A stretch of 64,000 nucleotides of DNA from Syntrophales bacterium. GTDB lineage: Bacteria; Desulfobacterota; Syntrophia; Syntrophales; UBA2210. Both the position numbers and the translations under genes were made by a program. Below the pieces are notes generated by a model. It was not told the DNA's origin. It did not search any database and was given only the letters and a program-made list of their open reading frames with translations. Positions within the stretch are counted from its first letter, which is position 1, and the number at the start of each line of letters is the position of its first letter. This document shows positions 11,315 to 54,557 of this stretch, piece after piece. Where the stretch lies: positions 2,225,949-2,289,948 of the forward strand of contig OY761459.1 of NCBI GenBank assembly GCA_963664485.1, written 5' to 3'.

Positions 11315-11351
11315 CCTAAGGGCCTAAGTAAGTCAGAAAGGAGAAAAAACT

Positions 11352-27290: not shown

Positions 27291-27343
27291 TCTAAAAGGC
27301 ATCGGCACTTAGATAAGATGCCATTCAGAATTATCCACCTATT

Positions 27344-27420
27344 CGGGGCGTAGCGCAGCTTGGTAGCGCGCCTGCTTTGGGAGCAGGATGTCGCAGGTTC
27401 AAATCCTGCCGCCCCGACCA
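27344..27420 (+). tRNA. tRNA-Pro (anticodon TGG), CCA encoded
   Basis: The cloverleaf was folded by hand: acceptor CGGGGCG/CGCCCCG, D stem GCGC/GCGC, anticodon stem CCTGC/GCAGG with loop TTTGGGA, and T arm GCAGG-TTCAAAT-CCTGC. Length 77 nt. Confidence 0.95.
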
Positions 27421-27477
27421 GTAATTTTCTGTAATTTTGAGATTTAAAACGTGATTACAGCCGTCGTATTATGCGTT

Positions 27478-29216
27478 TTACTCGAAAGCGAATCCTTCTT
27501 CCCGAAAAAGCGCGATACAGATTTGTGCCACGGAGTCGTCATAGATCCCGTCCGGCACCGGTTTGAATTTCCTTTAGTGCCGCTTCGATTCCCAGGGAAG
27601 GACGATACGGACGGTGCGATGCCATCGCCTCGACGACGTCTGCAACGGCGACAATCTTTGCCTCCATCATGATATCTTTTTCCCTGAGACCCTGTGGGTA
27701 GCCGCTCCCGTCGAGCCGTTCATGGTGTTGATGAACGATATCGGCAATACGGCCAGGGAAAGTCGATTTCCTTTAGCAATTGATAGCCCATTCGAGGGTG
27801 ATCCTTAATTAACTCGAATTCCGTTGCGCTCAGTTTCGACGGTTTGCTTAGAATTTCCGCCGGTATATTGATCTTACCGGCATCGTGAATCGAAGCGGCA
27901 AAGCGGATTCCCATGATGATGTCTTCCGGTAGATTCATTTTTCCAGCGATCGCGCTGGCAAGAGACATGACCCGGATCTGATGTCCTGCCGTATACGGAT
28001 CCCTGAGTTCAACGGCCCTCGCGAGAACCTGGATGGTGCCTTCAAAGGTGGAGAGTATTTGTTTATAGTTTTGGACCAGTTCCCTCTCCGCGTCCTTTTG
28101 CTTTGTTATATCGCGGTAGATGATAAAGTATCCCTCAGTTCTACCGTCGATGATTACCGGTCCTCCCGATATCGAAACATTAACCGCGCCGCCGTCTTTG
28201 CGGTATCGGACCCTCTCGTAATCGCGAACTCCTCCTGCCAGGGATTCCTGGTCGATAGCCCGAGCTTCTTTTATCTGGTCCATTCCCGCGGGAATAACTA
28301 TATCATTAATGTTTTTCCCTCTTATCTCTCCAATCTTATATCCGAACAGATCCAGGAATCCCTGGTTAGCGTCCATTACCCTGCCCTGGAGATTGAGTGT
28401 AACTATTCCTTCGAGGGAATAGTCGAAGATGGATCGAACTCTGGCTCGCTGACGTCTCGCCTCCTGTTCCGCCTTTTTCCGTGGGGTTATGTCACGCAGA
28501 GAGGCGATGAAGCAATCTTTTTTTTCGTATACCGTGCTCGCGACACGCATTTCCACCGAGGTTATTTTCCCCGTTGTACCGACTATGTCTATCTCGGAAT
28601 ATTCCCTTTCGATGACGGGAAATCCGAATTCACGGCCCACCATCTCCCCTGCCGGTCTGCCGAACATTGTTTCAGCGGAACTGTTGATAAAAAGGATAAT
28701 GCCGGAGGAATCGATGATCACGATCCCATCGGCATTTCCCTCGATAACGGTGCGAAACATATTTTCGCTCCGGGCGAGTTCCACCTGTGCCGACTTTCTC
28801 ATCAGGGCGAGTTCTACGGCGGAGTGTATGTCCGTTTTTTGAAAAGGTTTCGTAATAAAGCCGAAAGGGACGGTGGCCATGGCGCGGCTTCGAGTATCGG
28901 CATCGATATCAGCAGTTACATATACAACAGGAATGGCGTAATGCTCTTGGATGTACTTTGCGGCATCTATACCATCCATCTTTCCATAGAGTTTGATGTC
29001 CATCAGGATCAGGTCGGGGGGCTCCCGGCGAACCATTTCAAGGGCGTCTTCTCCTGAACCTGCAATCGATATTCTGCCGTATCCTTCTGACTGAAGTATG
29101 TCCTTGAGATCATGTGCCACGACCGACTCGTCTTCGACGATCAATATATGTAAACGCTCTTTATCCTCTACCATTTTATCCTCCTCGATTCGGGCCGTTC
29201 GCGTCCCCGGGAGCAT
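27478..29216 (-). pseudogene. Response regulator REC-PAS-PAS-HD-GYP (c-di-GMP phosphodiesterase type) disrupted by two +1 frameshifts in the HD-GYP domain
   Basis: The track ORF (27720..29216) ends at ...DFPWPYCRYRSSTP*. The next frame reads IADIVHQHHERLDGSGYPQGLREKDIMMEAKIVAVADVVEAMASHRPYRPS...GAGR. A third frame reads IYDDSVAQICIALFREEGFAFE*, with its stop at 27478. The likely start is ATG 29174, after GAGGAGG. Confidence 0.75.
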
Positions 29217-29403
29217 GTCGTTTCTGTTATCTCGTCCCTTCGGGCATCCGATATCTCTTCAGGAAAAAGGAGTGTTACAATCGTACCTCAACTATCATCA
29301 GCTCTTTTCCAATGGCTTGTGTTGTGAACTGTCATATGTTTCTTGCGTCATCATGTCCCCGGGCCGCGATCAGCCGACATTTCACCGGAAGCATATCCTG
29401 ACA

Positions 29404-29667
29404 TCAGGCCAAATTCAGTATCGATATAATATGCTGTTCATTGCTGATGTCGCCAATCATTTTTCGCTCGGGTGGCGGGGTGGACTTTATCAGTGTGGGT
29501 GTTGCAAAAATATTGTCTCGAAGGCATTGGTCAGGGTTTTCGATTATATCGATAATTTCAAGGAGATATCCCTTGCCGAACCGTTGCGAAAGAATATTAT
29601 GCAGCAGAGTAATAGTGTTTTCCGTTTTCTTGGAACGATTGGAGATGTAAAATTTGAGTTCATTCAT
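29404..29667 (-). CDS. kaiB: KaiB-family protein (thioredoxin-like fold)
   Basis: 87 aa. LKFYISNRSKKTENTITLLHNILSQRFGKGYLLEIIDIIENPDQCLRDNIFATPTLIKSTPPPERKMIGDISNEQHIISILNL is collinear with cyanobacterial KaiB (LKLYVAG.TP.S..A...L..IL......Y.L.VIDVL.NPQLAE.D.I.ATPTL.K.LP.PVRRIIGDLSD.E.VL.GLDL). Confidence 0.85.
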   Translation of the reverse strand: MNELKFYISNRSKKTENTITLLHNILSQRFGKGYLLEIIDIIENPDQCLRDNIFATPTLIKSTPPPERKMIGDISNEQHIISILNLA

Positions 29668-29679
29668 GGCATATTCTCT

Positions 29680-30063
29680 CTAAAATAGTGTTGGTTTTTC
29701 GAGAATACTTCGGGATAACAGCAGGATTTCCTCCGTTCCAACCGGCTTCCTCAACACCTCGAAGTGGACACCATCAGCCACAAGTTGTTTGAGATCGGAA
29801 AAAAATTCTCCGTAAAAAGCCGTTACTATGTATACAGGAACATCCTTGTCCACTTTACGAATTTCTTTCAACACCTCGATACCGTTCATTCCGGGCATCT
29901 TGAGATCAAGGAAAACGAGATGGAAGGAATTGTCTTTGAACAGGCGTATCCCTTCCTCGCCCGATGCCGCAGTTGTCACGGCATATCCTGAATCTTCCAG
30001 GGCAAGCTCAAAAGCAAGCCTGACTGACGAATCGTCGTCGATTACCAGTATATGGCTCTGCAT
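29680..30063 (-). CDS. Single-domain response regulator (CheY-like receiver)
   Basis: 127 aa with the acidic pocket DDD, phospho-acceptor in FLDLKMPGMNG, and conserved T (IVTA) and K (RKP). Confidence 0.9.
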   Translation of the reverse strand: MQSHILVIDDDSSVRLAFELALEDSGYAVTTAASGEEGIRLFKDNSFHLVFLDLKMPGMNGIEVLKEIRKVDKDVPVYIVTAFYGEFFSDLKQLVADGVHFEVLRKPVGTEEILLLSRSILEKPTLF

Positions 30064-30104
30064 CCCTCTTTATCTCCTTAGTTTTTTTATATGCGTATGT
30101 GCCC

Positions 30105-32018
30105 TCATCGTTTAACACCTTTTTGTTGTACCGGCAAGGATATCTCGGCTGTTGTTCCGGCAGCTTGCGTACTTGTGCAGGTTATGGTTCCTCCGTGCCT
30201 TTCGATTATGTTCCTGCTTATAGACAGGCCGAGTCCCGTTCCTTCTCCCACCGGTTTGGTCGTGAAAAATGGATCGAAGATACGACCGATATGTTCTTCC
30301 GCGATGCCGCAGCCGCTGTCGGTGACTCGTATGTGAACGTACCCGTTTTCAATGAAGAACAAAATGTTCAGCAAGTGCTCTTTCGGCGCAAGCTTGAGAG
30401 CGTCCAGCGCGTTTGACATAATGTTCAGGAGCACCTGTTGTATCTCTTCAACCCTCATGGGAATTTCGGGGATGACACCGTCGACCGTTTTCGTCAACAC
30501 GACATTTTCTTTGTCGATGCGATAGCGGAGCAGGCTTTCGACCCGGTCGAAAACATCGGTTATGCATTCCCGGCGCATAGCCGTTTCATGATCCGTCCCT
30601 TCATATCGTGAGAAGGTAAGAAGGTTTTTCACGATGCCGATGGAGCGATTGGTTTCCATTTCGGCGTTCTCCAGCACGAGGGCCTTTTTGTCATCGCCAG
30701 GGGTATGTTTCCGGCAGTACTGGATAAAGTTAAGGATGCCCATCAAGGGGTTATTCAGTTCATGGGCGATTCCTGCCACCAGGGTGCCGAGGGCCGTCAT
30801 CTTTTCCGACTGGATGAGATATGCCTGGGCCTCCTGGAGCTCCCGGGTTTTTTTCTGAACCCTGAGCTCCATCTCGTCGTAGGCCGACTTCAAAGCTGCT
30901 TCCATGCGCTTTCTGTCGGTAATGTCCCGGATCACACCCACGGAGCCTATGTGAATGGCCAGCATCTTGACGGGATTCACTTCATACATACCCGAACTGT
31001 TCACTTCCATCGTGACCAGGTCCCCTTCGATATTTTCGACGACGCCCGGTGAAATGTCCCGATCCTTGCTCTTCGGCACAAGCCGGATTTCCAGGCCTGT
31101 CGTTTTCCGACCCCCCGTCCGTCGCTCGTCCATGAGCTTCGGCGCGCCTTCGTCCCCCGTCTCCAGTCCTTCATATTTCGGCAGGACGATCTCCCGGCTC
31201 GCCGTCTCGACGTCGGCTGGAAGAACTATTGTGCTGAAATGTTTACCTATCAGCTCTCCGGGAGTGTAACCGATGTGACGGATGGCATCGTTGATGAAAG
31301 TAAAATGGCCCGAAGCGTCGATCCGGTAGACAATATCGGGAATGGTGGTAACCAGGTTTTTGAATCGCGCTTCCGAGGCCTTCAACTCGACCAGGCGGTA
31401 TTCGAGTTGTTCGTTTAACCGCGCCAGCTTTTCTTTTGTCTCGACCAGTTCTCTGTTCAGGAGATTGAGTTCCTGATTCTTGTGGATTGCGTTTTCGAAG
31501 GTGGAGAGCAACAGGTTAGTGATCTGTACCCTGTTTGCCGTGATGTTATGTTTTTCTCCGGCGAAAAAAACCTCGAAGGCCGACTCGGAAGGAGATATCT
31601 TCCGGAGTTTTTTGTTCTCCAGTATGGTTTCTATATGTTCGATGAGATACTTTTCGCTGTAAGGTTTGGTGATAAACCCGTCGGCACTGCTGGCGAGTCC
31701 TTTCACAATGTCGGCACGGTCGGTCAGTGCCGTCAGAAGTACCACGGGAATATGCTGGTGCTCGGGATGCGATTTCACTATATTGCACAACTCATACCCG
31801 TCCATGGTCGGCATGATGATGTCACTGATGATAAGGTCCGGAGGCGATATCTCGATCCGCTTGAGAGCCTCCCGGCCGTGGGAGGCTTCCGCAACATGAT
31901 AGCCGTGGCTTTCGAGGAGCTGTAAAAGTATGGCCCGCTGGGTGGGACTGTCTTCCACGATGAGGACAGTCACCGGGTTCTTGCGGTCCGATATCTTAAT
32001 GCCTTTCCTGGGGCTCAT
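30105..32018 (-). CDS. Hybrid sensor histidine kinase (N-terminal REC, coiled coil, PAS, HisKA, HATPase_c)
   Basis: REC (LIVEDSPTQR...DIIMPTMDG), H-box GIAHELNNPL, and N/G boxes (NIMSNALDA, DSGCGI, GTGLGLSIS). Confidence 0.9.
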   Translation of the reverse strand: MSPRKGIKISDRKNPVTVLIVEDSPTQRAILLQLLESHGYHVAEASHGREALKRIEISPPDLIISDIIMPTMDGYELCNIVKSHPEHQHIPVVLLTALTDRADIVKGLASSADGFITKPYSEKYLIEHIETILENKKLRKISPSESAFEVFFAGEKHNITANRVQITNLLLSTFENAIHKNQELNLLNRELVETKEKLARLNEQLEYRLVELKASEARFKNLVTTIPDIVYRIDASGHFTFINDAIRHIGYTPGELIGKHFSTIVLPADVETASREIVLPKYEGLETGDEGAPKLMDERRTGGRKTTGLEIRLVPKSKDRDISPGVVENIEGDLVTMEVNSSGMYEVNPVKMLAIHIGSVGVIRDITDRKRMEAALKSAYDEMELRVQKKTRELQEAQAYLIQSEKMTALGTLVAGIAHELNNPLMGILNFIQYCRKHTPGDDKKALVLENAEMETNRSIGIVKNLLTFSRYEGTDHETAMRRECITDVFDRVESLLRYRIDKENVVLTKTVDGVIPEIPMRVEEIQQVLLNIMSNALDALKLAPKEHLLNILFFIENGYVHIRVTDSGCGIAEEHIGRIFDPFFTTKPVGEGTGLGLSISRNIIERHGGTITCTSTQAAGTTAEISLPVQQKGVKR

Positions 32019-32037
32019 AATGTTGCTCCTGCCATTG

Positions 32038-33126
32038 TTAGCCTGTCTTCAGTTGATTGATAACAAGCGCGATTCCCTCGGGGTCGAGGAGGTATTCTGC
32101 CGCGCCTATTCGCTCGGCTTCGCCGGGCATGCCGTATACCACAGCGCTTTCACGGCTCTGCGCCACCGTGAGAGCGCCTTTATTTCTCATCATTTTCAAT
32201 TCCGCCGCCCCGTCGACCCCCATCCCGGTAAGGATGATTCCCGCGGCTCTTGATCCGTAGACTTTTGCAACGCTTCCAAAAAGGTGCGATACGGAAGGGC
32301 AGATATGTAATGTCCCGGTGCCGCGATACAGGCGTATTCTGCCGGTGCCGGTAACTCCCATATCAAAGTGATCGGGGGCGAAGTATACTCCTCCGGGCCG
32401 TAATTGCTCGCCGTCGGCCGCGATATAAACCGCCTTCTTCGTTGTTGCAGCGAGCCAGTCCACAAGCCCTTGGAGAAATCCCTCGGCGATATGCTGTACG
32501 ATCACAATGGGCGGGTTCTTTCCGTCCGAATCGATCCCCTCCAGAATTTGACGGACGGCAGCGGGACCGCCTGTCGAAGCTCCTATGGCTACGATCTCGA
32601 TCTTGTGCATCTCTTTTTCTGTAACGCCCGGGGATACCGAATCGACAGGGGCTTTTCGATACCTGGTATGGCGCTTGACAACCTTGATCTCCGACATGAG
32701 CTTGACCATTTTGATTAGCTCTCGGACATCTTTTTCATGGTGCGGGTGACCGATACCCTTCGGTTTCTGCAGCACCGTCAGCGCTCCCGCCTCGAGTGCC
32801 CGGAACACCGTTTCCTGCGAGTAGGGGTTCCAACTCGCCGTAACGATGACGATGGGAAGAGGGTCTTTCGCCATAATTCTTCGCGTTGTCTCGAAACCGT
32901 CCATGTCGGGCATGTTGATGTCCATGGTGACAAGATCGGGCTTCGAATGTGCGAGAAACTCCAGGGCCTCTGCGCCGTGTTTTGCCGCGCCTATTACCTC
33001 TATCTCAGGATCGGAATCGAGGATGTGTCGGAGAAATTCCCGCGCTACGATGGAATCCTCGACTATCAGCACCCGAATTAATCTCTTCTCTTTCTTATTA
33101 ACTCTGTTATTAATTGCTTTTTTCAT
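32038..33126 (-). CDS. cheB: Chemotaxis protein-glutamate methylesterase (REC + CheB catalytic domain)
   Basis: RVLIVEDS...DINMPDMDG receiver, then GASTGGP and the catalytic region. 4-nt overlap with the cheA stop. Confidence 0.9.
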   Translation of the reverse strand: MKKAINNRVNKKEKRLIRVLIVEDSIVAREFLRHILDSDPEIEVIGAAKHGAEALEFLAHSKPDLVTMDINMPDMDGFETTRRIMAKDPLPIVIVTASWNPYSQETVFRALEAGALTVLQKPKGIGHPHHEKDVRELIKMVKLMSEIKVVKRHTRYRKAPVDSVSPGVTEKEMHKIEIVAIGASTGGPAAVRQILEGIDSDGKNPPIVIVQHIAEGFLQGLVDWLAATTKKAVYIAADGEQLRPGGVYFAPDHFDMGVTGTGRIRLYRGTGTLHICPSVSHLFGSVAKVYGSRAAGIILTGMGVDGAAELKMMRNKGALTVAQSRESAVVYGMPGEAERIGAAEYLLDPEGIALVINQLKTG

Positions 33127-35441
33127 ATCAGTCTTTCAATCACTTCGATCAGGTTGCTCTGATCGAAACTGCTTTTGACGATATAGGCATCCGCCCCTGC
33201 GTCGATGCCTCGCTTTTTGTCTTCCGGAGATTCCAGGGCCGTGACGAGAACGACGGGTGTTTCGGCGTAACGACGATCAGTCTTGATCTTTGCCGTCAGA
33301 TCAAAGCCGTTCATGCGCGGCATGTCCACGTCGGTTACGACCAGGTCGGCTGGATTTTCCAGCAGCTTCGTGAACCCTTCGATACCGTCGTTTGCGGTCA
33401 TCACCCGGTAGCCGGCGCCTTCAAGAATGTTTTTTAGCAGCATCCTCGCTGTGATGGAATCTTCCACGACAAGAATGGACTTCGGCTCCGCCTGACGGAG
33501 ATCCCCTCGCGCCTCCTGTAGAGGAGAGACGCTCTCCGCCGGTCTGATGCCCTTTACCAGGGCAGAAACACTGATGACGGGAACCACCCTGCTTGACCCG
33601 AGGACTGCGGCGCCGTTGAAGTGACGAACGAACGAGAGCTGAGCGTCGAAGCTTCGGACCAGAACCTCCTCCTCACCCAGTATTTCGTGAACGGCGACGG
33701 CGATTTGCTCACTGCCGGAGGAGACGATAAGTACCGTTGAAGCCGGCTTCTCGTCTTTTTTCGCCGGAAGGGAAAGAAGTTCCGCCAGCGCAATCAACTG
33801 CAGCGAAACCCCGTCATGGCGAATGGTGCGAGTTCCTTTTACGAAAAAAATGTCATCATTCTCCAACTTTTGTGCCCGTACCACCGCCGCGGTGGGAATA
33901 ATAAATTCGTGATCGTAGACACGGATCCGCACTCCTCGAAAGGTAGCCCGGGTCAGAGGAATGACCACCCTGAAAGTCGTTCCGACTCCCAGCTGTGTTT
34001 CGGCGATATCTATGAATCCACCGAGTTGTTCGATTTTTTCGCGCGCGATGGCCAGACCCAGTCCCCGTCCGGACAGATCGGTGATGAAATCGCTCGTCGA
34101 AACCCCGGAAAAGAAGATCAACTCCAGAGCGTCTTCCCTGCTCAGGGTTTTCCTGCTTTTTACCTCAACATGTCCCGCCTTCCGGGCGGCCAGTCGTATC
34201 TTGTCTTCGTCCAGACCTTGCCCGTCGTCTGAAAAGAGAATTTCCGCCCTGTTTTCCTCGATCCGGTTTACGACAATCGAGATGGTCCCCACGGGAGATT
34301 TTCCCCTGGAGATACGGATCTCCGGGGTCTCGATCCCGTGGTCGATACTGTTTCGTATGAGGTGGAGAAAGGGGTCTCGCATCTCGTCGAGAATGCGGCG
34401 GTCTATCTCGATATCGGCCCCCGAGAAACGAAGCTCTGCGCGTCGTTTTTTCTCCCGGGACAGATCGCGAACAATCTTTGGAAATGTTGTAAGGAGTGAT
34501 GAGAAGGGGAACATCAGGATATTCTTGACATCGTCCAGAAGTGCGTCGATGATTATCCCCGCACCGTGGCTGTCATGGAACGCTCTCGTCCCTATGCCTG
34601 AGAGATTTTTTTCGACGGATATAATGGTTGTGTAGAGTTGATCGAAATAACCGACTGTCTCGCTGTCGTGGCCGGGCATGCCGGACGAAGAGGCCCTTTC
34701 CCGCTGTTTCAACAAGTGAAGGGCTTTCAGCCAGCGAATTCGCATGGTGCCGATCAGGTCGAGGACCGCACGGAGCTCTTGATCCCGTTCCAGAAGCGAA
34801 CGCTTCAGCCCGATTAATTCTTCCGTCTGTGAGAGAACGGCGTCAAGCCGGGATACGGAAACGCGTATCGAGTCCGAAGTAACGGATGTGATTTGCGGTG
34901 AGGGAAACGCCGAGTTTTCTTCTCCGGCAGCGCCTTCCGCCATGATGTGTTCCGGGAGCGTTTCCCGGGATTCCAACTTCGCCGCGAAGGAAGGTGAGGG
35001 TGGCGTTTCCTCTTGTGCTGTTTTTTCTTTAGGGAATTCGTTTTGCGTCTTCGCAATCATGGCGATTTGTTTGATCACCTCCGAAATGGGAGGGGGACTT
35101 GTTTGCTCCGAGGCCGATAATTGGCCCGCGATGGCGCTCACGGCGAGGTGAAGTTTGTCGTAAAAGTCCTGTGTCGGTGTGATATCTTTTTTCTTCATTG
35201 ATGCAAAGATCGTTTCCATTGCCTGGCAGAGTTGTTCCACTTCGGAGAAGTGCACCGCCCTGGACGCTCCTTTCAGGCTGTGGGTCGCCCGGTAGACGGT
35301 TTCGATAATCGTCTCCGTTCTCGCCGTATCGACGCCCTGTTCCATTTCGAGAAGCCCGTCCGTTATTGCCTTGAGGTGGTCACTCGCCTCTGCACGATAG
35401 ATCTCGATCAGCTTCTTCATGAAGGTCTCATCACCTGCCAC
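33123..35441 (-). CDS. cheA: CheA-type histidine kinase fused to a C-terminal receiver (WspE-like CheA/Y hybrid)
   Basis: Hpt (ATHSLKGASRAV), HATPase (HLIRNSIDHGIE, DDGQGLD, GRGLGL), CheW-like domain, and C-terminal REC (ILVVEDSITAR...DVDMPRMNG). Confidence 0.9.
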   Translation of the reverse strand: MAGDETFMKKLIEIYRAEASDHLKAITDGLLEMEQGVDTARTETIIETVYRATHSLKGASRAVHFSEVEQLCQAMETIFASMKKKDITPTQDFYDKLHLAVSAIAGQLSASEQTSPPPISEVIKQIAMIAKTQNEFPKEKTAQEETPPSPSFAAKLESRETLPEHIMAEGAAGEENSAFPSPQITSVTSDSIRVSVSRLDAVLSQTEELIGLKRSLLERDQELRAVLDLIGTMRIRWLKALHLLKQRERASSSGMPGHDSETVGYFDQLYTTIISVEKNLSGIGTRAFHDSHGAGIIIDALLDDVKNILMFPFSSLLTTFPKIVRDLSREKKRRAELRFSGADIEIDRRILDEMRDPFLHLIRNSIDHGIETPEIRISRGKSPVGTISIVVNRIEENRAEILFSDDGQGLDEDKIRLAARKAGHVEVKSRKTLSREDALELIFFSGVSTSDFITDLSGRGLGLAIAREKIEQLGGFIDIAETQLGVGTTFRVVIPLTRATFRGVRIRVYDHEFIIPTAAVVRAQKLENDDIFFVKGTRTIRHDGVSLQLIALAELLSLPAKKDEKPASTVLIVSSGSEQIAVAVHEILGEEEVLVRSFDAQLSFVRHFNGAAVLGSSRVVPVISVSALVKGIRPAESVSPLQEARGDLRQAEPKSILVVEDSITARMLLKNILEGAGYRVMTANDGIEGFTKLLENPADLVVTDVDMPRMNGFDLTAKIKTDRRYAETPVVLVTALESPEDKKRGIDAGADAYIVKSSFDQSNLIEVIERLI

Positions 35442-35489
35442 GGCGATTTTTCCTCCTTCAAATTACCGTGATTTTGAACCTGTTCCGTT

Positions 35490-37553
35490 CTATACCCTGT
35501 ACTGCTTCACCATTTCCTTGAGCCTCATCCCCAGCTCGTGCAGGTCTTGAATGGCCCGCTCCATCTGTTTCGTACTGGAGGCTACCTGGACGCTGGCCTC
35601 CTTGATATTCTCCATAGCGGCGGCTACCTGTTCCATTCCCACCTGCTGCTGTTGACTCGATGCCGTGATCTGAACCGAGGCGTTTGCTGCTTCATCGACA
35701 TTCTCGGCAAGTGTATTGATCACTCCCTCAGATTTTTGCAGTAGCGCCAGGCCAGCTTCCACAGACTTGTTACCCTGCTCGGTGGACATGACTGCGGTGC
35801 TTATGGACCGCTGAATATCGTTCAGGATATTCCTGATCTGTACCGTTGCCTGTTTTGACTGGTCGGAGAGACTCTTCATCTCCTGGGCGACGACGGAAAA
35901 GCCCCGTCCCTGTTCTCCGGCCTTCGTCGCTTCGATGGAGGCATTAACGGCCAGAAGGTTCGTCTGTTCCGTAAGACCCGTTACCGTCGCGGTAATTTCT
36001 CCGATGGACCGGCTCTGTTCACTGAGTTGTATCACCGTATCGGCTATGCCCCCCATCTGCTCCCGGACGCGATTCATTCCTGCCAGGGCTTCACGGATCG
36101 CCTCGATCCCGTCCTGGGATGTTTCGGTTGCCTGGCGTCCCAGTTCCGATACTTGTGCCGCCTTTTTCGACGAGAGCTGAGCCGTCTGTTTCACTTCCTC
36201 TACGGTCGCCGTCGTCTGGCTGACCGCGGTGGAAGTCTCGGCGGTGCTGGACGAAACCTGTGCTACGGATGCCATGATCTCGCTTGTCGAGGACGAGAGG
36301 ACGTTTGTCGCTTCCTGTATTTCAGATATCTGCCGTCTCATTCTATCAAACATCACTGAAAAAGCTTTCCCGAGGATGTCCCGTTCGGATCTCGGTGCCA
36401 ATTTCTCCGTGAGATCCCCTGTCGCCCCTTTGTCGGCCGCTGCAGCTATAGTCTTCATTGCTTCGGTCGTTTCCCTCATTGCCGAGAGCATCTCTCCCAG
36501 TTCGTCTTTGCCCCCCTCGGCAATGGGAATGTCCGTGTCGCCGATGGCGAGAGCATTTGCGGCATCGACGACCGTGGTGATCGATCGCGAGATGTTTAAG
36601 GCGAACAAGTAGAAGAAAAGGGATGCCAGAATCAGCGCCGCAATGCCGATGGAGATGATCAGGGCGGCAAGACCTCTGCCCGGTGCAAGAAGCTCTTCCA
36701 TGGGGAAAATAGCTATAACCTTCCATCCCGTCGTGGGGACCGTCGAGAAAGCGCAGAATTTTCGCAAGTTTTGGGAGGTATATTCGAGGGAATGGGCGGT
36801 TATGCTGCCGGGTGAAGTGATGATTTTTTCGAGGTTTTTGTCAATATCGGAGAGTGACATGGTAAGGATGCGCGATTCCTCGGGATGGACGATATAGGTA
36901 CCTTTTTCATCGGTAAGATAAACATACCCCGTCTCCCCCACGTGAATGGTGCTCACAAGCTTTTTCAGGTAGTCGAGCCAGATGGCCATTACGACGGCGC
37001 CCGAAATCTCTTTACCGTCTGACGTATAGACGGGATATGCGACTGTACAGATGAGTTTCCCTGTCGCTGCGGAGTGAACGACGGCGCCGACGAAGGGGGT
37101 CCCACCCAAGGCCGATTTCAGGTAGGCCCTCGATGATAGATCGACACCTGCGTATTTCCCGTCGTCGCTGGAAGCAAAAATATGACCGGTCTGTCTGCTT
37201 ACCAGTGAGACACTGGAAAATCTGTCGCCTGCCGACGCCTTGATATTGTTGAGTTCGGCCTGTACGGTTATGATTTCTTTTTGTCCCTCTGCCACGCCTG
37301 AACGGAACACCTTTTCCGCGGCAGCGATGGTACTTTGAGAAAATGAGATATTTCGTGCCGTAATGAGCTGTTCCTGCATATACATATCGATCATGCGTGT
37401 GGTGCTTTCATCTATTGCTGCTACGGATCGCTCGCGGTTTTCAAAGAGCTTTTCCGTCGACTGGCGGACCGACACGATGCCGATCACCAGGATGGGAAGC
37501 ACGACGGCCGTCAATCCTCCCAATAAAAGCTTTCTTTTCAGTGTCAATTTCAT
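35490..37553 (-). CDS. Methyl-accepting chemotaxis protein with periplasmic Cache-like sensor, HAMP and MA domains
   Basis: Two TM segments bracket a ~270-aa periplasmic domain. The conserved signalling hairpin is EATKAGEQGRGFSVVAQEMKSLSDQS. Confidence 0.9.
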   Translation of the reverse strand: MKLTLKRKLLLGGLTAVVLPILVIGIVSVRQSTEKLFENRERSVAAIDESTTRMIDMYMQEQLITARNISFSQSTIAAAEKVFRSGVAEGQKEIITVQAELNNIKASAGDRFSSVSLVSRQTGHIFASSDDGKYAGVDLSSRAYLKSALGGTPFVGAVVHSAATGKLICTVAYPVYTSDGKEISGAVVMAIWLDYLKKLVSTIHVGETGYVYLTDEKGTYIVHPEESRILTMSLSDIDKNLEKIITSPGSITAHSLEYTSQNLRKFCAFSTVPTTGWKVIAIFPMEELLAPGRGLAALIISIGIAALILASLFFYLFALNISRSITTVVDAANALAIGDTDIPIAEGGKDELGEMLSAMRETTEAMKTIAAAADKGATGDLTEKLAPRSERDILGKAFSVMFDRMRRQISEIQEATNVLSSSTSEIMASVAQVSSSTAETSTAVSQTTATVEEVKQTAQLSSKKAAQVSELGRQATETSQDGIEAIREALAGMNRVREQMGGIADTVIQLSEQSRSIGEITATVTGLTEQTNLLAVNASIEATKAGEQGRGFSVVAQEMKSLSDQSKQATVQIRNILNDIQRSISTAVMSTEQGNKSVEAGLALLQKSEGVINTLAENVDEAANASVQITASSQQQQVGMEQVAAAMENIKEASVQVASSTKQMERAIQDLHELGMRLKEMVKQYRV

Positions 37554-37608
37554 GGAATCCTCCTCGCGTCAGGTTCTTGCCGGGCTTTACTGAATGAGCC
37601 CTGTTATG

Positions 37609-38181
37609 CTATAGGGAACCAACGATTCCCCCTTTGATAATATCCGAACCGAGAATCTTCTCCGTGTCGAGGATGATGATCTTTTCATTTGTGACGCCGG
37701 AAAGAAACTCGATCTTCTTTTCCTTCATGGTGGACGGAACCGGATGAACATGAGTGTTCCGGATAGATATGATACCCTCTATTTCATCCGTGAGAACGCC
37801 CATCTCCATCCCCCCATGAGAGAGTATAACGATCTTGTTGAATTCGGTGATACCCCGTTCAGGGAGGTGAAAGAGCCTCTTGAGGTCGATTACCGACAGG
37901 ATCCGGCCTCTTACATGAGTAATCCCCGCGATGAACGGGGGGACACCGGGGAGAAATGTCAGCGAAGTGAGTGGAAGGACTTCCCGCACGTAGGTCATAT
38001 GAAAGGCGTACCGTTCAAAGGCGAGCGAAAATACCAGGAAATCCCGCAAGCCGGCCGGGTCTTCAAGCGGGAGACGCTCCTTCGCGTAGAAAATGGCCCG
38101 TTCATGAAGGATCTTCTTCTTGGCCAGGTTGTCGGAGTTGCCCGGTATGGTACTTGTTCCTGCGGCCGTTTGTCTCTTCAC
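37609..38181 (-). CDS. cheW: CheW-like coupling protein
   Basis: 190 aa with the CheW-domain pattern (FLVFSLAFERYAF...GITHVRGRILSVIDL). Confidence 0.85.
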   Translation of the reverse strand: MKRQTAAGTSTIPGNSDNLAKKKILHERAIFYAKERLPLEDPAGLRDFLVFSLAFERYAFHMTYVREVLPLTSLTFLPGVPPFIAGITHVRGRILSVIDLKRLFHLPERGITEFNKIVILSHGGMEMGVLTDEIEGIISIRNTHVHPVPSTMKEKKIEFLSGVTNEKIIILDTEKILGSDIIKGGIVGSL

Positions 38182-38191
38182 GTATCCCTTT

Positions 38192-39694
38192 TCACCTCTT
38201 ATTTGTCATGTTTTCTCCCTGCAGTGTTTCTACTATTTCTCTCAGCCGTCCCGCTGTCATGCCTTCCGACTCCGGCAGGATTTCACCTGCGTCGCAGCGA
38301 TTGAGAAGGGCAAGCGTATGCGCATAGTGACGGGATGCCGCTACTGCGCCACCTTCATCCCGGGCGATATTTCCGAGCGAAAAATGGGCGAGAACGTGAC
38401 GCGGATCGAGATAAAGCACCTTTTTTAAAGCGGCTGTCGCTTCTTTCTTCCGGTTCATCTCCTCGAGAATCATGGCCCTGAGAAAATAAGGCGAGGGTTT
38501 GAGCGTATCCTCGGAGAGGGCCTCGTCGCACAGCGCCAGTGCCTCGTCGAGAGCTCCCCGGCCAGCCTTTATACGGGCACTGGAAATCAGTTCGTCCGCC
38601 TTGTTGTACCCTTCCGGCGGCGATGTTTCATACGCTGATGGAGTCGCGACGGTACGATGGCCATGACTCGTCGTAACCGTCGCCCCCCGCGCGGGAGAGG
38701 ACTTCTGGGACGATCTGAAAGGTTTGAGACATACAGGCGCAACGTTTCGTTTCTTTCTTGACACCCGCACCGGAATTTCTCCGCTTTGAGCGAAGTGTTC
38801 CAGTCGATCTTCGTGAGAGGAGTGAGAATCCTTTTGATATAAAGTGACGTCATTGTAGTGGAGAGATCGGAATGATGAAAAAAGGAAAGAAGAGATTTCC
38901 ACCGGGCTTACGATAAGATACCCTCCTTCGGAGAGGCAGCGATAAAAACGTTCCACCGTCGAGGCAAAGTAGTCCGGGGAAAAATACATGAGCACGTTTC
39001 GGCACAGTATGAGATCCATTCCGGAGGTGTTGTTGATGAGTGAGGGATAAATATCCTCCGAAAGGTTAAGATATGTGAAGGTAACCATATCGCGTATGTG
39101 CGCCTTAATTTCAAAGCGGTCCTGTTTTATATTCGTGAAGCAGGAATCCTTGACCCACTTGGGGGTATTTCGAAAAGACCACTTTGAGTAAATGCCCATG
39201 CGGGCCCTTTCGAGGATCTCTCGATTGATATCGGTGGCGAGGATCGTAATATGCCACTGTTCCTTTTCGGAAAGGATTCGGTCGAGGAGAATCGCCAGTG
39301 AATACGGCTCCTCTCCCGTGGCACAGCCGGCGCTCCAGATCCTGAGGTATCTCCCCTGGTCTTTCTTGGATGCAATAAGCTCCGGTAACAGCTTCATTTC
39401 AAGCATTTCGAAAAGAGAAGCGTCTCTGAAAAAAAAGGTTTCGCTGGTAGTCAGATACCCGACAAGGCTGTCGAGCGTTGTGTGATCGATCGAAGAAGAG
39501 AGTAGAGAATGGGTGAATGCAACGGGATCGTCGTGTCCCATCCCCCTGGCGGCCATATCGAGTCGCTGGGCGAGATCTCGATAGTTTTTTTTCTCGAAAT
39601 CAAGCCCTGTTGCCCGGCGGATAAAATCGCCGGCCTGTGAAAGCAGATCTTCCGGAATGGCACGATGGTTTGTCTGTTCGGATCGTTTATCCAT
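38192..39694 (-). CDS. cheR: Chemotaxis methyltransferase CheR with C-terminal TPR extension (WspC/FrzF-like)
   Basis: CheR SAM-binding region (RIWSAGCATGEEPYSLAILL) plus about 120 aa of TPR-like C-terminus. It overlaps the upstream cheW by 8 nt. Confidence 0.9.
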   Translation of the reverse strand: MDKRSEQTNHRAIPEDLLSQAGDFIRRATGLDFEKKNYRDLAQRLDMAARGMGHDDPVAFTHSLLSSSIDHTTLDSLVGYLTTSETFFFRDASLFEMLEMKLLPELIASKKDQGRYLRIWSAGCATGEEPYSLAILLDRILSEKEQWHITILATDINREILERARMGIYSKWSFRNTPKWVKDSCFTNIKQDRFEIKAHIRDMVTFTYLNLSEDIYPSLINNTSGMDLILCRNVLMYFSPDYFASTVERFYRCLSEGGYLIVSPVEISSFLFSSFRSLHYNDVTLYQKDSHSSHEDRLEHFAQSGEIPVRVSRKKRNVAPVCLKPFRSSQKSSPARGATVTTSHGHRTVATPSAYETSPPEGYNKADELISSARIKAGRGALDEALALCDEALSEDTLKPSPYFLRAMILEEMNRKKEATAALKKVLYLDPRHVLAHFSLGNIARDEGGAVAASRHYAHTLALLNRCDAGEILPESEGMTAGRLREIVETLQGENMTNKR

Positions 39695-40211
39695 CCTGCT
39701 CTACCTTTCTCTTCTTTCCCGGCTTAGCAGATTGTTTTGTCTTTGTAAGCTGAAAAAGCGCCTCATCAAGATGGATTTCTTCCTCTGATGAAAGAAAGGA
39801 GTCGAGATCGTGGATATAGACGAGCCCGTCATCGAGTATTACCACTCCGGATATGGGCCCGTTTATTCCAGGTATGGTGTCCTGAGGAACGATTCGAGCT
39901 TCCGGGTAGTCGAAAACACCGGCGACATCGTCGACGACGAGCAGGATAGTCCTGTTACGCGTTTTTGCAACGATGAAACTGTCGCCAGGATCCAGGTCAC
40001 GTTCCGAGAAACCGAAGCGACGGCGTGTGTTGAAAACGGGAAGTAGAGTTCTTTCCAGATTTATGAGACCCGCGACGGCGAAGGGCGCGTTGGGGAGAGG
40101 GGTGATTTCCATTGCAGGAAGAACCCGTACTACCGCAGGTAGGTGAAGGGCGAATCGTTGTGTGTCAAGGGTAAATATGACAAGCTGCATTATAACACTC
40201 TCTTTCCTCAC
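39687..40211 (-). CDS. cheW: CheW-like coupling protein (first gene of the che operon)
   Basis: CheW pattern LVIFTLDTQRFALHL...VAGLINLERTLLPVF. The track start is GTG 40211; ATG 40190 (MQLVIF) is a plausible alternative. Confidence 0.8.
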   Translation of the reverse strand: MRKESVIMQLVIFTLDTQRFALHLPAVVRVLPAMEITPLPNAPFAVAGLINLERTLLPVFNTRRRFGFSERDLDPGDSFIVAKTRNRTILLVVDDVAGVFDYPEARIVPQDTIPGINGPISGVVILDDGLVYIHDLDSFLSSEEEIHLDEALFQLTKTKQSAKPGKKRKVEQDG

Positions 40212-40682
40212 GTGAACTGCAGTAAAATGAATGAGTGCGCCTTGTGTGAGTGTTAAAACCTTATCTGCCTATTCCAATATCCCTTTTTATCCATACTGCG
40301 TTTATACGGGTATAAATGCTGGCATTATACAAGTATTATTAATTGTATGCAAAGAATATTTGGGTTGGTTAGGTAAAAAGCGTGCAGAATCATTCATACT
40401 GCCACAAGGTGGAATATGTCTTTCATTGTCATTAAAACCATAAGAAGCATTCTTACAGCGATCCTTTTTAATGAAGCGGCAAAACTTTATCATAGCCATT
40501 GAAATACAACCTTATGGTGAAAGATACTGAATATTTGTAATATGTTGCAGTACTTTTGCCTGAGCCAATCGATAAACGATGCATTGTATATATTGACAAC
40601 GTGTTCAGGGGCTAGTAGCCTCTAAACAAGAAACAACACATTTAGATAGAAAACATTTTATAAACCGGTGGAAAGGAGAAGA

Positions 40683-41036
40683 ATGACCATGAAAGTCGAT
40701 TTTTACTGTTGGACATCTTGAAGCACCTGTCGCAAAGCGAGAGAGTTTCTCTTGCAGAAAGGGGTTGAAGTAAACTATCACGACTTCTTCAAGAACCCTT
40801 TTAGTCGAACGGAGATCGAAAACCTGCTCCAGGGAAATCCGGTTTCTGAGATGTTCAATTTTCGAAGTCCCAGCTTTAAGAAAATGGGTTTGGAGGAGGG
40901 TGTCTTGACCGATGATGAACTCATGGAACTCATTCTGAAAGAACCTCGCCTTATTCGCCGCCCCGTTGTCCGTATCGGCGGAAATGTATATTTCGGAGCC
41001 AACAGTAAAGCTCTGGAAAAGATCAGTCAAAAATAA
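40683..41036 (+). CDS. ArsC/Spx-family thioredoxin-fold protein with in-frame UGA (probable selenocysteine; UxxC motif)
   Basis: The track ORF (40752..41036, TTG start, no RBS) lacks the family's N-terminal redox motif. ATG 40683 follows an AAGGAG RBS and is in frame. It reads MTMKVDFYCWTS-TGA-STCRKAREFLLQKGVEVNYHDF, with the TGA at 40719-40721 at the position of Spx Cys10 in CxxC(RKA). Confidence 0.7.
40737..40755 (+). promoter_or_regulatory. SECIS-like hairpin 15 nt downstream of the in-frame UGA
   Basis: GCGAGAG-AGUUU-CUCUUGC forms a 7-bp stem (one G.U). The small apical loop contains G and U. Its distance from the UGA is within the range expected of bacterial SECIS elements. Confidence 0.45.
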
Positions 41037-41109: not shown

Positions 41110-41988
41110 CTACCTCTCGTGATCGTAGGCAGGCCGACGCTCGAACTGAAGTTTACTTTCTCTCTGCTCCGGATAAAATTCTCTCTGCCCATGGGGCGAA
41201 TGCTCCTCCCGGGGCTTTTCAGAATGAATCTTTTCCCCGGTATGCTGTACTTCGGGCCGCTGTCCAACCTGGGGTTTCTTCGGCTGATTAATCTGTTTTT
41301 CTCTTCCGGACTGTCCCTGTTGAAATTTCTGTACCGGTTTTTCTCTCTGCGGATTCTTGTCTTGAAATCGTTTATCAATTTGGTCAATCTCAGGTTGATG
41401 TCTCAACGGGGGATTGTAACGCTGATCGGGCTGTTCTTTCTGAGGCTGTCTCTTATAATATTCACTTTGTTTCTGTTGTATTAACCCCTGCTTCTGTTGT
41501 TGCGACCGAGGTTGATAGTTTTCTACACCCCAGGTCCCCCGTTTTTCCCAATGCCTGTCATCCTGCCAGCTCTTCCAGTGCTGTTTAAGTTTGTGATGGG
41601 GAATCCTTTCATAGTTCCAGTTGTGCCCGTACCAGTTATGATTTCTGTAGCAGTTTCTCCAGCCCACGAAAAAATCAAAATAGAAACTCGGAACGGCATT
41701 ATAGTAATACCAGTCATGGTCGTAATACCTTGAGCGATACCAGCGGTTATTCCATGAACGCCACCACCATCCATCCCAGAAATACAAATCGAAATTTATG
41801 TCGGGGACAGCGTAAACGTAATACGTATCGGGAATCACTATAACGTGGGGGGGACCATTGAACTCAATCGGCGGCGGTTCACCGTAATTTTGATCATAAT
41901 AAACCGGTTCGGGACCAGCGTAGCAGCCTTGTAGAAACAGGAACAGCAATATTACGGCAAATACTTTTGACATTTTTATCTTGTCCAT
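41110..41988 (-). CDS. Putative lipoprotein with Trp/Tyr-rich core and Gln/Lys/Glu/Pro-rich tail; function unknown
   Basis: Signal plus lipobox-like sequence (LLFLFLQGC). The aromatic block is YFWDGWWWRSWNNRWYRSRYYDHDWYYY...NHNWYGHNWNY, and the C-terminal half looks disordered. Opposite-strand ORFs are low-complexity shadows. Confidence 0.6.
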   Translation of the reverse strand: MDKIKMSKVFAVILLFLFLQGCYAGPEPVYYDQNYGEPPPIEFNGPPHVIVIPDTYYVYAVPDINFDLYFWDGWWWRSWNNRWYRSRYYDHDWYYYNAVPSFYFDFFVGWRNCYRNHNWYGHNWNYERIPHHKLKQHWKSWQDDRHWEKRGTWGVENYQPRSQQQKQGLIQQKQSEYYKRQPQKEQPDQRYNPPLRHQPEIDQIDKRFQDKNPQREKPVQKFQQGQSGREKQINQPKKPQVGQRPEVQHTGEKIHSEKPREEHSPHGQREFYPEQRESKLQFERRPAYDHER

Positions 41989-42142: not shown

Positions 42143-42478
42143 CTATCGATGCCGATGGTCCTGTCGATGGTGATGAGGAATCTGGTGTCTTCGATAATCC
42201 CGATGACCAGTTCTTTTTTGAGGTACATACCTATAGTGGGGCGGATTCACATGACGAGGATAAACGTAAACCGGTCCGGGCGGATAATAAACTCGAATGG
42301 GAGGAGGAGCATTATAAACATACGCGCAACATGGATCAGTTGCTTCAGCAATAACAGTTCCCATTATAATACCTCCAACAATCGCTAACGGCACCCATTC
42401 ATCACCAGCTTCACTCTGCTTAGGTACAGTCAAACCCAGCATTAAAACTGCCAGTACGATAACTATAAAACGTTTCAT
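42143..42478 (-). CDS. Small exported/membrane-anchored Pro/Tyr-rich protein with His/Arg-rich tail; function unknown
   Basis: AAGGAGG RBS before ATG 42478 (MKRFIVIVLAVLMLGLTVPKQSEA signal). Followed by a hydrophobic segment, YVYNAPPPIRVYYPPGPVYVYP, and the C-terminus HQIPHHHRQDHRHR. Confidence 0.55.
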   Translation of the reverse strand: MKRFIVIVLAVLMLGLTVPKQSEAGDEWVPLAIVGGIIMGTVIAEATDPCCAYVYNAPPPIRVYYPPGPVYVYPRHVNPPHYRYVPQKRTGHRDYRRHQIPHHHRQDHRHR

Positions 42479-42635
42479 GAGTAACACCTCCTTTGGTTTT
42501 TCAGACGTTCGGTTCAAAGTTAAAGTTTACATGACCTGTTATAATAAGTGATCGCTATCTCATTTTTACTATCTACCCGCAACCCCTGATCAATATATTG
42601 AAATAAAGAAAATTTTTGATTATCATGCAAATATT

Positions 42636-43239: not shown

Positions 43240-43788
43240 TCACATTTTCCGGCTGCGAAAGATTTTCGGGATCAGGATGGGTGTTCTTTTTTTATAATCC
43301 ATGTATTCTTCGCCGAGGCGTTTTTCCAGTTCCGGTTCCTCGATCAGTTTGAATTCCAGGATGCTTAAGACCATGAATGCCGGGGTGAAAACAAACAGGA
43401 GGGATAAAGATCCCATGAGAAAAGCGAGCGCGAAGAAGATTAAGAATACGCCCGAAAGCATGGGGTTTCTGACGCAGGCGTAGGGACCGGTATCGACAAG
43501 CTTTGCGGGCGGGCTGACAGGTACGGGAGTTCCGCTCGCCTTCGCGAAATGCACTACCGACCATAACCACAGAAAAACACCAATCGCGAGCAGAGGTAAG
43601 GAGACTACATAATTCCAGGGATATCGAAGGGGTAGGGGAAGACTGAAGAATGCATCGACTCTCAATGCGAGAAATATTGTCAGCAGGATAAGTAAGAGGA
43701 AAAATGCGGCGAAGACCGGTATAAGAAGCATCCGGATGTACTTTTCTCCTGTTACAATCCGGTAGATAAAATCGACGATTCTTTTCAT
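43240..43788 (-). CDS. Isoprenylcysteine carboxyl methyltransferase (ICMT/PEMT) family membrane methyltransferase
   Basis: 182 aa, multi-TM, with the motif LVDTGPYACVRNPMLSG...EEPELEKRLGEEY typical of the ICMT family. Confidence 0.75.
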   Translation of the reverse strand: MKRIVDFIYRIVTGEKYIRMLLIPVFAAFFLLLILLTIFLALRVDAFFSLPLPLRYPWNYVVSLPLLAIGVFLWLWSVVHFAKASGTPVPVSPPAKLVDTGPYACVRNPMLSGVFLIFFALAFLMGSLSLLFVFTPAFMVLSILEFKLIEEPELEKRLGEEYMDYKKRTPILIPKIFRSRKM

Positions 43789-52351: not shown

Positions 52352-52873
52352 TTACCGCTTTACGGTATTCCGGTTTTTACATTTTTCGAGAAGCGATATA
52401 ATCTTTTTTTCGATAAACGCTTCACTCCGCTGGCCGGTAATTGTTTCGATGAGCTTCCCGTTTCCGACAAAAAGGGTGAGGGGAATGCCTGAAATCCCGT
52501 ATTCCGCCGTAACTTTTTCACCGCCCCAATATACAGGGAATTCCAGACCCATCTGATCGACAAGCGGCTGCATTGCCGAGGACCCCCCGATATCGAGGCT
52601 GATGCCTACAATACGCAGGCCATCGCCTTTGTACTTCTCGTGCATTTTCTGGAGGATGGGCAACTCTTCACGGCAGGGGGCGCACCACGCGGCCATGGCA
52701 ACCAGCATAAGAGGGCAATCCTGATTATTTATGAGTGATTGAATTCCGGCTACATCAATGGGGGTAACGGCATTCTTTTTCTCAGGACCGGGGGTTTCAT
52801 CGCCGGAACACCCCGGGAGCATGATCATGAGAAAAAGCAAAATGCCAGAGACCGTTTTTTTAAGCACGGACAT
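52352..52873 (-). CDS. TlpA/ResA-like periplasmic thiol:disulfide oxidoreductase (lipoprotein)
   Basis: Lipobox LPGCSG and thioredoxin motif WCAPCREE; 173 aa. Confidence 0.85.
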   Translation of the reverse strand: MSVLKKTVSGILLFLMIMLPGCSGDETPGPEKKNAVTPIDVAGIQSLINNQDCPLMLVAMAAWCAPCREELPILQKMHEKYKGDGLRIVGISLDIGGSSAMQPLVDQMGLEFPVYWGGEKVTAEYGISGIPLTLFVGNGKLIETITGQRSEAFIEKKIISLLEKCKNRNTVKR

Positions 52874-54551: not shown

Positions 54552-54557
54552 AGTTTG

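Follow-up and report, generated by a model that had tools for sequence, protein, structure and literature searches.

We investigated a 64,000-nucleotide stretch of the genome of a Syntrophales bacterium (assembly GCA_963664485.1, contig OY761459.1, forward strand; hereafter the window), and in it a short gene at positions 40683-41036 whose reading frame is interrupted by a TGA codon. Comparative evidence indicates that this is most probably a genuine selenocysteine (Sec)-encoding gene with a functional Sec insertion sequence (SECIS) element. Its product is very likely a thioredoxin-fold protein of the ArsC/Spx/YffB superfamily, in which the first Cys of the active site has been replaced by Sec. 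A first-pass annotation, made from the letters of the window alone, had proposed a probable UxxC selenoprotein here, and conservation of the TGA, Sec/Cys pairs among homologues and covariation in a downstream hairpin all support that proposal.

On the plus strand, the frame that opens at ATG 40683 reads MTMKVDFYCWTS*STCRKAREFLLQKGVEV...ISQK*, the internal stop being the TGA at 40719-40721 and the terminal one the TAA at 41034-41036. Direct reading of the sequence shows an AAGGAG Shine-Dalgarno-like motif separated by 4 nucleotides (nt) from ATG 40683 and by 10 nt from another in-frame ATG, at 40689, both of them downstream. The product is 117 amino acids (aa) long from the first ATG and 115 aa from the second, with MTMKVDFYCWTS-U-STCRKA at its N-terminus. 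The open reading frame (ORF) caller began the gene at TTG 40752 and returned only 94 aa, and the identical truncated product is found in the public protein collection (P0001). The ribosome-binding motif, ATG 40683, the TGA, the TTG-started ORF and the hairpin were all present where the first-pass annotation had placed them. The features of the locus are as follows:

40673..40678, plus strand: Shine-Dalgarno-like AAGGAG, read directly; comparable GGAG motifs lie 5' of the homologous starts
40683..41036, plus strand: predicted full-length selenoprotein gene with an ArsC/Spx-fold product and Sec as codon 13, from the translation, PF03960, TIGR01617 and Cys homologues
40689..40718, plus strand: N-terminal coding segment MKVDFYCWxx (strand beta1 and loop), lost in the truncated annotation; invariant residues, free synonymous codons
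40707..40709, plus strand: additional invariant Cys9 (FYCW), giving C-x3-U-x2-C spacing; invariant in alignment A2 and in all loci
40719..40721, plus strand: in-frame UGA, predicted Sec codon U13 and first residue of U-S-T-C, from TGA in 55/55 loci, Cys alternation and alignment with Spx Cys10 and ArsC Cys12
40728..40730, plus strand: putative resolving Cys, C16, of UxxC; invariant column in alignment A2, aligned with Spx Cys13
40737..40755, plus strand: bacterial SECIS-like hairpin with stem arms 40737-40744 and 40748-40755 and loop GUU at 40745-40747, from the minimum-free-energy (MFE) fold, covariation, RNAalifold and frozen codons
40752..41036, plus strand: truncated 94-aa ORF with TTG start, an annotation artefact, from the ORF list, P0001 and 70 other truncated products among the best 120 homologues

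The loci used for comparison comprised 12 from a scan of species-representative genomes (Dehalococcoidia and Smithellaceae/Syntrophaceae metagenome-assembled genomes, MAGs), 40 from a metagenome scan, and more from single-protein look-ups. TGA occupied the same column in all 55 Sec-type loci, comprising a set of 52 and, outside that set, L065-67. They come from Syntrophales-like bacteria and Dehalococcoidia, members of two phyla, and 41 of the 52 are unique over a 123-nt span. The ten codons 5' of the TGA keep an M-K-V-D-F-Y-C-W core, and the M, F, Y, C and W of the MKVDFYCWxx segment are invariant in the 41 unique sequences. Synonymous sites in these codons vary freely: Val is written with four codons, Phe as TTT 22 and TTC 19 times, Asp as GAT 31 and GAC 9 times, and Cys as TGT 6 and TGC 35 times. 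It follows that this frame is the one translated here and that purifying selection acts on the protein product. The flanking peptide is kept on both sides of the UGA (MKVDFYCWxx-U-xTCRKA). The first-pass annotation had named homologues that begin downstream of the stop, or that lack conservation of the upstream codons and hairpin, as a sign against its proposal. The opposite was observed: homologues do not begin downstream, and the 12 upstream codons and the hairpin are kept.

These data bear on the reading that gene callers and public annotation have in effect adopted, in which nothing is recoded and the locus is a pseudogene or a sequencing error, or else a 12-codon leader ORF followed by a separate 94-aa protein starting at TTG 40752. 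Frameshifted copies do exist (L012). However, the same TGA recurs in the 55 loci from independent samples, and the upstream codons, selected for their amino acids, encode the beta1 strand and active site needed by every ArsC-family domain. The TTG has no Shine-Dalgarno sequence and sits within the 3' arm of the hairpin, and the Cys homologues run continuously over the site. We consider the non-recoding reading effectively refuted, with only a very slight chance of being right.

The frameshifted copy lies at 3001-3341 of L012, from the Dehalococcoidia MAG Kmv36. It keeps both the TGA and the hairpin and loses the frame after about codon 35, and may be a pseudogene or an assembly error.

As for the start, ATG 40683 had been proposed at first pass, and this codon is indeed present with AAGGAG upstream, but the start conserved among homologues is probably ATG 40689. 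Homologues keep the start equivalent to 40689 (MKVDFYCW), and in two loci (L007 and L052) a stop codon lies directly 5' of it. This makes 40689 the probable true start and leaves 40683 as a possibility.

Sec could also be dispensed with if UGA had been reassigned to a sense codon across the genome (code 4 or 25), and 35 database products do carry W at this column. This W is an artefact of gene calling: the DNA of L017 has TGA, and its recorded product is not obtained under code 11. Moreover, TGA ends 13 of the 38 Pfam-supported genes of the window at full domain length. The standard code is therefore used and the recoding is local. Reassignment is already refuted, and we give it a negligible probability.

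The column alternates between Sec and Cys, a check that had been named at first pass. A Cys codon (TGC or TGT) is found there at the DNA level in five distinct homologues (L013-16, L018/19, L020/21, L022/23 and L024). Full-length Cys homologues, of 114-116 aa, align from their first residues and continuously across the site. Since the nearest relative of every Cys form is a Sec form, not a second Cys form (88% versus 79% for L018; 86% versus 79% for L020), the data suggest several independent switches between Sec and Cys.

One singleton carries neither residue. Locus L068 (287-631; product P0058) has a real TGG (Trp) at the Sec column, within a glutaredoxin-like N-terminus, MDVIIYTSPT-W-PYC, and every pair of its hairpin downstream of the TGG, GTGAAGGAGTTTCTTTCGC, can still form. 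On a contig of only 668 nt, this copy may have arisen by mutation of TGA to TGG, by recombination or through chimeric assembly.

The MFE fold of 40719-40775 contains a 19-nt hairpin at 40737-40755 with an 8-base-pair (bp) stem (GCGAGAGA/UCUCUUGC; 7 bp if the closing A-U pair opens) and a GUU loop. The first-pass annotation had located it correctly, beginning 15 nt after the UGA, but had counted 7 bp in a stem of 8. The distance from UGA to loop is 23 nt and the loop is 3 nt long, and both values fall inside what we take to be the limits of bSECISearch (16-37 nt and 3-14 nt, respectively). A lower-stem extension in the MFE structure of the window was rejected, as its pairing is not conserved and RNAalifold retains the 8-bp helix alone.

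Covariation supports this helix. We used an ungapped alignment (A1) of the 41 unique TGA sequences and counted pairing in 40 distinct sequences. Across these, 98.8% of the cells of the 8-bp helix were paired, a value that fell to 35-76% when the 3' arm was slid by 1-3 columns. RNAalifold, run without a prior structure, returned precisely this helix and no other pairing. Compensatory changes occur in three pairs, and the covariation score was matched by none of 500 shuffles. Columns 21-35 hold GC in 32 sequences, AU in 5 and GU in 3; columns 23-33 hold AU in 25, GC in 13 and GU in 2; and columns 26-30 show an AU-to-CG swap in L035. The L035 swap requires two residues of the protein to change (Glu to Ala, Phe to Leu), and RNA pairing was therefore preserved at the expense of the protein sequence.

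Codon usage in the stem is frozen, which supports the helix independently, and the covariation check named at first pass came out in favour of the hairpin. Glu is GAG in 40/40 sequences, Phe is TTT in 35/36, Ser is TCG in 33/33 although six Ser codons exist, and Ala takes only the codons GCG and GCA. Elsewhere in the gene these amino acids show codon variation (Glu GAA 20 and GAG 11; the four other Phe codons close to 22:19). In the listed sequences GCA is always accompanied by TTG, and a Lys codon (AAR) at stem position 5 by CTT, as pairing demands. The G of the loop is invariant. Bacterial SECIS elements are described as stem-loops that directly follow the UGA and have a G in their small apical loop, and the hairpin matches this description in position, size and loop (PMC1088965).

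The fate of the hairpin after loss of the UGA is also informative. In Cys forms that are 88%, 86% and 79% identical to their nearest Sec form, all 8 pairs are kept. The diverged Cys forms have degraded hairpins, with 6/8 pairs at 71% identity in L013-16 and 4/8 at 64% in L024, whereas Sec forms just 54% identical to each other still retain 7-8 of the 8 pairs. With just two diverged Cys lineages, this is suggestive rather than statistical evidence that the hairpin persists alongside the UGA and decays once the UGA is gone. Cys homologues that descend from selenoproteins have been described with remnant ('fossil') SECIS hairpins (PMC1794560, Fig. 4). The likeness to the remnants in that figure is that L018/19, L020/21 and L022/23 keep the hairpin, each being closest to a Sec form; the difference is the gradient of decay seen here, which makes the clade a clean natural series of SECIS hairpin decay after Sec-to-Cys replacement.

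Several observations weigh against Sec insertion at this UGA. As a single sequence, the hairpin is not unusually stable (z = -1.45; 19 of 200 shuffles fold equally well), and its significance comes from comparative data only. The full hairpin persists in the three Cys-form groups just named, and its conservation could be partly inherited or imposed by the encoded peptide AKEFLSQ. Rfam gave no family match to the hairpin, either at the gathering threshold over the whole window or at E <= 10 over 40600-40900, where the sole match was a spurious snoRNA (E = 1.1). A match is not to be expected for so short and gene-specific an element. No selA, selB or selD was found among the approximately 40 window ORFs scanned against Pfam or in the fetched flanks. 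Neither the window nor the flanks of 34 related loci gave a tRNA-Sec with ARAGORN, the only tRNA of the window being a tRNA-Pro at 27344-27420. Of 37 in-frame TGA candidates with a redox-like context in the window, only the one at 40719 had homology support, so that no second selenoprotein gene accompanies it. Sec decoding in the source genome is assumed at the level of the lineage. Homologues of its prolyl-tRNA synthetase put the source with uncultured Syntrophales-like Thermodesulfobacteriota, at 100% to a protein on the contig that also carries P0001, 81% to a 'Syntrophaceae bacterium' and 72-73% to Syntrophus species. Syntrophus aciditrophicus is credited with 19 selenoproteins (PMC1794560) and Dehalococcoidia MAGs with 46-49 (PMC13326102), and both host lineages are, by these accounts, established Sec users.

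The lack of Sec machinery in the window and fetched flanks, together with the real TGG of L068, would also fit a SelB-independent read-through, in which a near-cognate tRNA (for Trp or Cys) reads the UGA with stimulation by the hairpin and the product contains no selenium. Against this, Cys alternation in five independent homologues within a CxxC-type active site is a signature of Sec, the position, size and loop G of the hairpin are those of a bacterial SECIS, and the documented use of Sec in both host lineages tells the same way. We regard such read-through as highly improbable, and favour decoding of UGA 40719 by Sec-tRNA(Sec) during translation, as the comparative evidence would imply.

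The family assignment was made with profile scores computed on the 117-aa product with U replaced by C. The Pfam ArsC family, PF03960, matched residues 8-113 (E = 4.8e-17; 62.5 bits against a cutoff of 24). The NCBIfam model TIGR01617 (arsC_related, Spx/MgsR subfamily) was passed marginally, at 75.7 against 75.05, which required both a restored N-terminus and the replacement of U. Narrower ArsC-like models remained below their cutoffs, namely TIGR00014 (ArsC; 52.1 against 106) and the YffB-type NF008107 (35.8 against 121). The best relative of solved structure was Streptococcus mutans Spx (3L78; 5e-13). As the first-pass annotation had it, the UGA falls exactly on the first Cys of the Spx CxxC(RKA) motif: U-S-T-C-RKA aligns column for column with C10-x-x-C13-RKA, with the UGA on Cys10 and C16 on Cys13. 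In ArsC, the Sec column aligns with Cys12.

We also examined the AlphaFold2 model of P0004, the closest full-length Cys homologue (69% identical), which has a mean predicted local distance difference test score (pLDDT) of 92.3. The model has beta1 at residues 3-9 and helix alpha1 at 14-24, with column 13 in the loop that leads straight into alpha1, the classical active-site position of the thioredoxin fold. The TTG-started call thus loses both beta1 and the active site, as had been noticed at first pass. A Foldseek search with the model retrieved Spx, ArsC and YffB structures about equally well, with template-modelling (TM) scores of 0.65-0.83; judged from this model, Spx, ArsC and YffB cannot be told apart by fold. 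Cys9 of F-Y-C-W, invariant in the clade, is placed by the model where beta1 ends and precedes Sec by four residues; neither Spx nor ArsC has a Cys at that position.

Given a selenoprotein, a small selenol/thiol oxidoreductase is the somewhat favoured function, the chemistry being read from motif and fold. The U13-S-T-C16 pair would cycle between a reduced selenol/thiol and an intramolecular selenenylsulfide, and a disulfide or some other oxidised substrate would thereby be reduced by the protein in an anaerobic host. The neighbours of Cys-form loci include genes for superoxide dismutase, rubredoxin, a Fur-family regulator, DJ-1/PfpI, ferritin and rubrerythrin-like proteins, which weakly suggests a role in oxidative-stress defence. 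The neighbourhood is not conserved between lineages. The gene is flanked in the window by a chemotaxis cluster and a lipoprotein of unassigned family, in Smithellaceae by an M29 peptidase and a B12-binding protein, and in Dehalococcoidia by a 177-aa protein or a heliorhodopsin. No common partner gene was found across the window and related loci, and no ars genes lie near any copy. The functional assignment therefore depends on motif and fold.

In the window, the gene is apparently monocistronic. It lies between the divergent chemotaxis cluster and a convergent 292-aa ORF with no assigned function, and a scan for promoters and terminators near it found none exceeding the shuffle expectation. 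The gene order breaks directly 5' of the gene (window ~27300-40600 versus L065 1-6800), while the downstream order is shared. On the window side of the break stands the chemotaxis cluster (CheW, CheR, CheW, a methyl-accepting chemotaxis protein, a CheA-like protein and CheB); in the 91%-identical relatives its place is taken by an integrase/AlpA/Rep_O island together with a small HD-domain gene. Downstream, two minus-strand ORFs at 41110-41988 and 42143-42517 encode proteins with lipoprotein-like or hydrophobic N-termini that are extremely rich in Trp, Tyr, His, Pro and Gln. The 292-aa one has no Pfam match, and ORFs of like size and position come after the gene in L065-67.

A PEMT/ICMT-family methyltransferase gene also recurs near the gene (window 43240-43788, minus strand; L065 9320-9868; L017 86-709), and in one Dehalococcoidia-type contig it lies directly upstream; this may be coincidence or a weak association. 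In seven Dehalococcoidia-type loci with Sec or Cys forms (L020, L021, L031, L036, L043, L045 and L047), a heliorhodopsin gene lies upstream on the same strand, mostly as the immediate neighbour and about 1.5 kb away in L036 and L047.

Elsewhere in the window, a plus-strand cluster at 6138-13154 encodes a pyruvate formate-lyase-like glycyl-radical enzyme (867 aa), a 316-aa ORF with no Pfam match, a radical-SAM activase and an aldehyde:ferredoxin oxidoreductase, and marks the source as a strict anaerobe. Two further Sec candidates were rejected. One is a thioredoxin/AhpC-like lipoprotein ORF at 52352-52873 (minus strand), of a family that often contains UxxC selenoproteins in related bacteria; it has an ordinary C-A-P-C motif and is a Cys form. 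The other, the same-frame TGA junction at 54560 (minus strand), separates two tandem ATP-grasp paralogues and is not a read-through. Within the region 53553-56881 (minus strand), these paralogues, similar to D-Ala-D-Ala ligase, lie in one frame, separated only by the TGA at 54558-54560. A lysine-2,3-aminomutase-like radical-SAM gene at 55571-56881 is directly upstream of the pair, which possibly makes this a beta-amino-acid ligation cluster.

The practical consequence of these findings concerns annotation. Among the best 120 database homologues, N-terminal truncation affects 71, while 'W' stands in 35 full-length products, Cys in 13 and a real Trp in one, P0058. Thus 106 of the 120 are mis-annotated, by truncation or a false Trp. 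The 71 truncated products have lost their active site, and only the 13 Cys forms are correct as they stand. The first-pass statement that ArsC-like selenoproteins were already known and are routinely truncated is correct, UxxC ArsC-like selenoproteins being on record since 2006-2008. Because the NCBIfam model for ArsC selenoproteins (NF041106) does not capture the clade, pipelines will keep mis-calling it, and here lies the main value of the result. A dedicated selenoprotein-aware model would correct hundreds of records. The result also adds a Sec-dominated clade of small redox proteins common to two groups of selenoprotein-rich anaerobes, Syntrophales-like bacteria and Dehalococcoidia.

Among characterised proteins, Spx is the comparison with the greatest bearing on function. 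Spx of Bacillus subtilis and Streptococcus (1Z3E, 3L78 and 7F75) shares the fold (TM 0.65-0.82), and its CxxC-RKA falls on UxxC-RKA here. Its R60 corresponds to Arg61, and the RRP(I/V) motif is held in common, so that its CXXC switch and RPI motif have counterparts in U13-S-T-C16 and R92-R93-P94-V95 (PMC8501982). With 3L78 as the best match of solved structure and a score above cutoff on the NCBIfam model named 'Spx/MgsR family RNA polymerase-binding regulatory protein', the product might be a Spx-like, Sec-based redox-sensing regulator, in which oxidation of U13/C16 switches binding to RNA polymerase and so controls transcription. We consider this improbable. The superfamily at large, rather than Spx in particular, shares the R60 equivalent, the RRP motif and the R/K that follows the motif, and the Spx equivalog and subfamily models lie far below their cutoffs (NF002459 54.8 against 123; SpxA 34.7 against 159; the third of the NF002459/NF009210/NF009885 set 29.6 against 152).

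The polymerase interface of Spx is also missing. By BLAST alignment, its contacts with the polymerase alpha subunit's C-terminal domain (alpha-CTD), R47, T53, D54, E72, L76, Q77 and Y80, are replaced by Q, V, S, G, D, D and M, so that 0/7 are kept (PMC8501982). The B. subtilis Spx query agrees with the PDB alignment except at one residue (H/D, position 23). G52 of Spx is not kept and aligns with Pro53, beside a 2-residue deletion. The C-terminal helices of Spx are recognised by YjbH/ClpXP, and the segment equivalent to Spx 119-131 is absent here. Helices alpha6 and alpha7 contact sigma-A, whereas the product ends at residue 117 (about Spx 116), with the alpha6 basic patch largely missing and alpha7 absent altogether (PMC8501982). 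Finally, alpha-CTD Y263 is a trait of low-GC Gram-positive bacteria (PMC8501982), and the hosts here are Thermodesulfobacteriota and Chloroflexota. The evidence argues against a canonical Spx-type polymerase interface.

A broader conjecture, that the clade represents either a Sec-based transcription-regulating redox sensor outside the Firmicutes or a Cys9-Sec13-Cys16 relay, metal or iron-sulfur-type site, strikes us as unlikely. A Sec-based regulator would, to our knowledge, be the first selenoprotein transcription factor, and a three-residue C-x3-U-x2-C relay or metal site would have no counterpart in any characterised ArsC/Spx protein.

R773/E. coli ArsC (1I9D) resembles the protein in fold (TM 0.82), in the position of Cys12 on the Sec column and in that of R94 on the RRP motif. 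It differs in having a single catalytic Cys (C-G-T-S) and an Arg60/Arg94/Arg107 triad, of which Arg107 lies beyond the end of the alignment. An arsenate reductase was rejected as a candidate on these grounds (UxxC rather than C-G-T-S, no counterpart to Arg107 within the alignment), on the TIGR00014 score and on the lack of nearby ars genes. Judged by its sequence, then, the protein belongs neither with the arsenate-resistance enzymes nor with the Spx regulators of Firmicute type, and a small selenol/thiol oxidoreductase is the function we continue to favour.

The closest precedents are selenoproteins themselves. Zhang and Gladyshev (2008) recorded an 'Arsenate reductase 2' family (cd03032) with UxxC and 42 sequences in the GOS survey (PMC2398784), and a UxxC arsenate reductase-like family is listed again in a 2022 review (PMC9312934). 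'ArsC-like' and 'distant ArsC homolog' selenoproteins were reported in Desulfotalea and Desulfuromonas (PMC1794560), a UxxS arsenate reductase in the Sargasso Sea (PMC1088965), and arsenate-reductase-like selenoproteins in BSepDB (PMC13326102). The main text of Peng et al. (2016; PMC5029168) mentions neither ArsC nor Chloroflexi. Surveys of selenoproteomes from 2005-2008 onwards had already anticipated family, motif and mechanism; the result opens no new question and would not surprise specialists.

The published UxxC ArsC-like family, by its description, shares with the clade (FYCW-xx-U-xTCRKA, 115-117 aa) the ArsC/Spx fold, Sec as the first residue of UxxC, Sec/Cys pairs and a downstream SECIS, as well as an occurrence in anaerobic deltaproteobacteria and metagenomes and a routinely truncated annotation. 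The extra invariant Cys and the approximately 8:1 excess of Sec over Cys forms are found here and not in the descriptions of that family that were consulted. NF041106 (ArsC_rel_Se_1, 'ArsC family (seleno)protein') is likewise a curated ArsC-family clade with selenoproteins, of the same fold and active-site position. Our sequence scores 32.9 bits against its cutoff of 85, and the clade is distinct and has no selenoprotein-aware model in the library. The clade thus appears to be a new, or at least uncurated, member of the known ArsC-like selenoproteins, with four traits of its own: the invariant FYCW with its third Cys, the predominance of Sec, the distribution over Syntrophales-like bacteria and Dehalococcoidia, and systematic mis-annotation.

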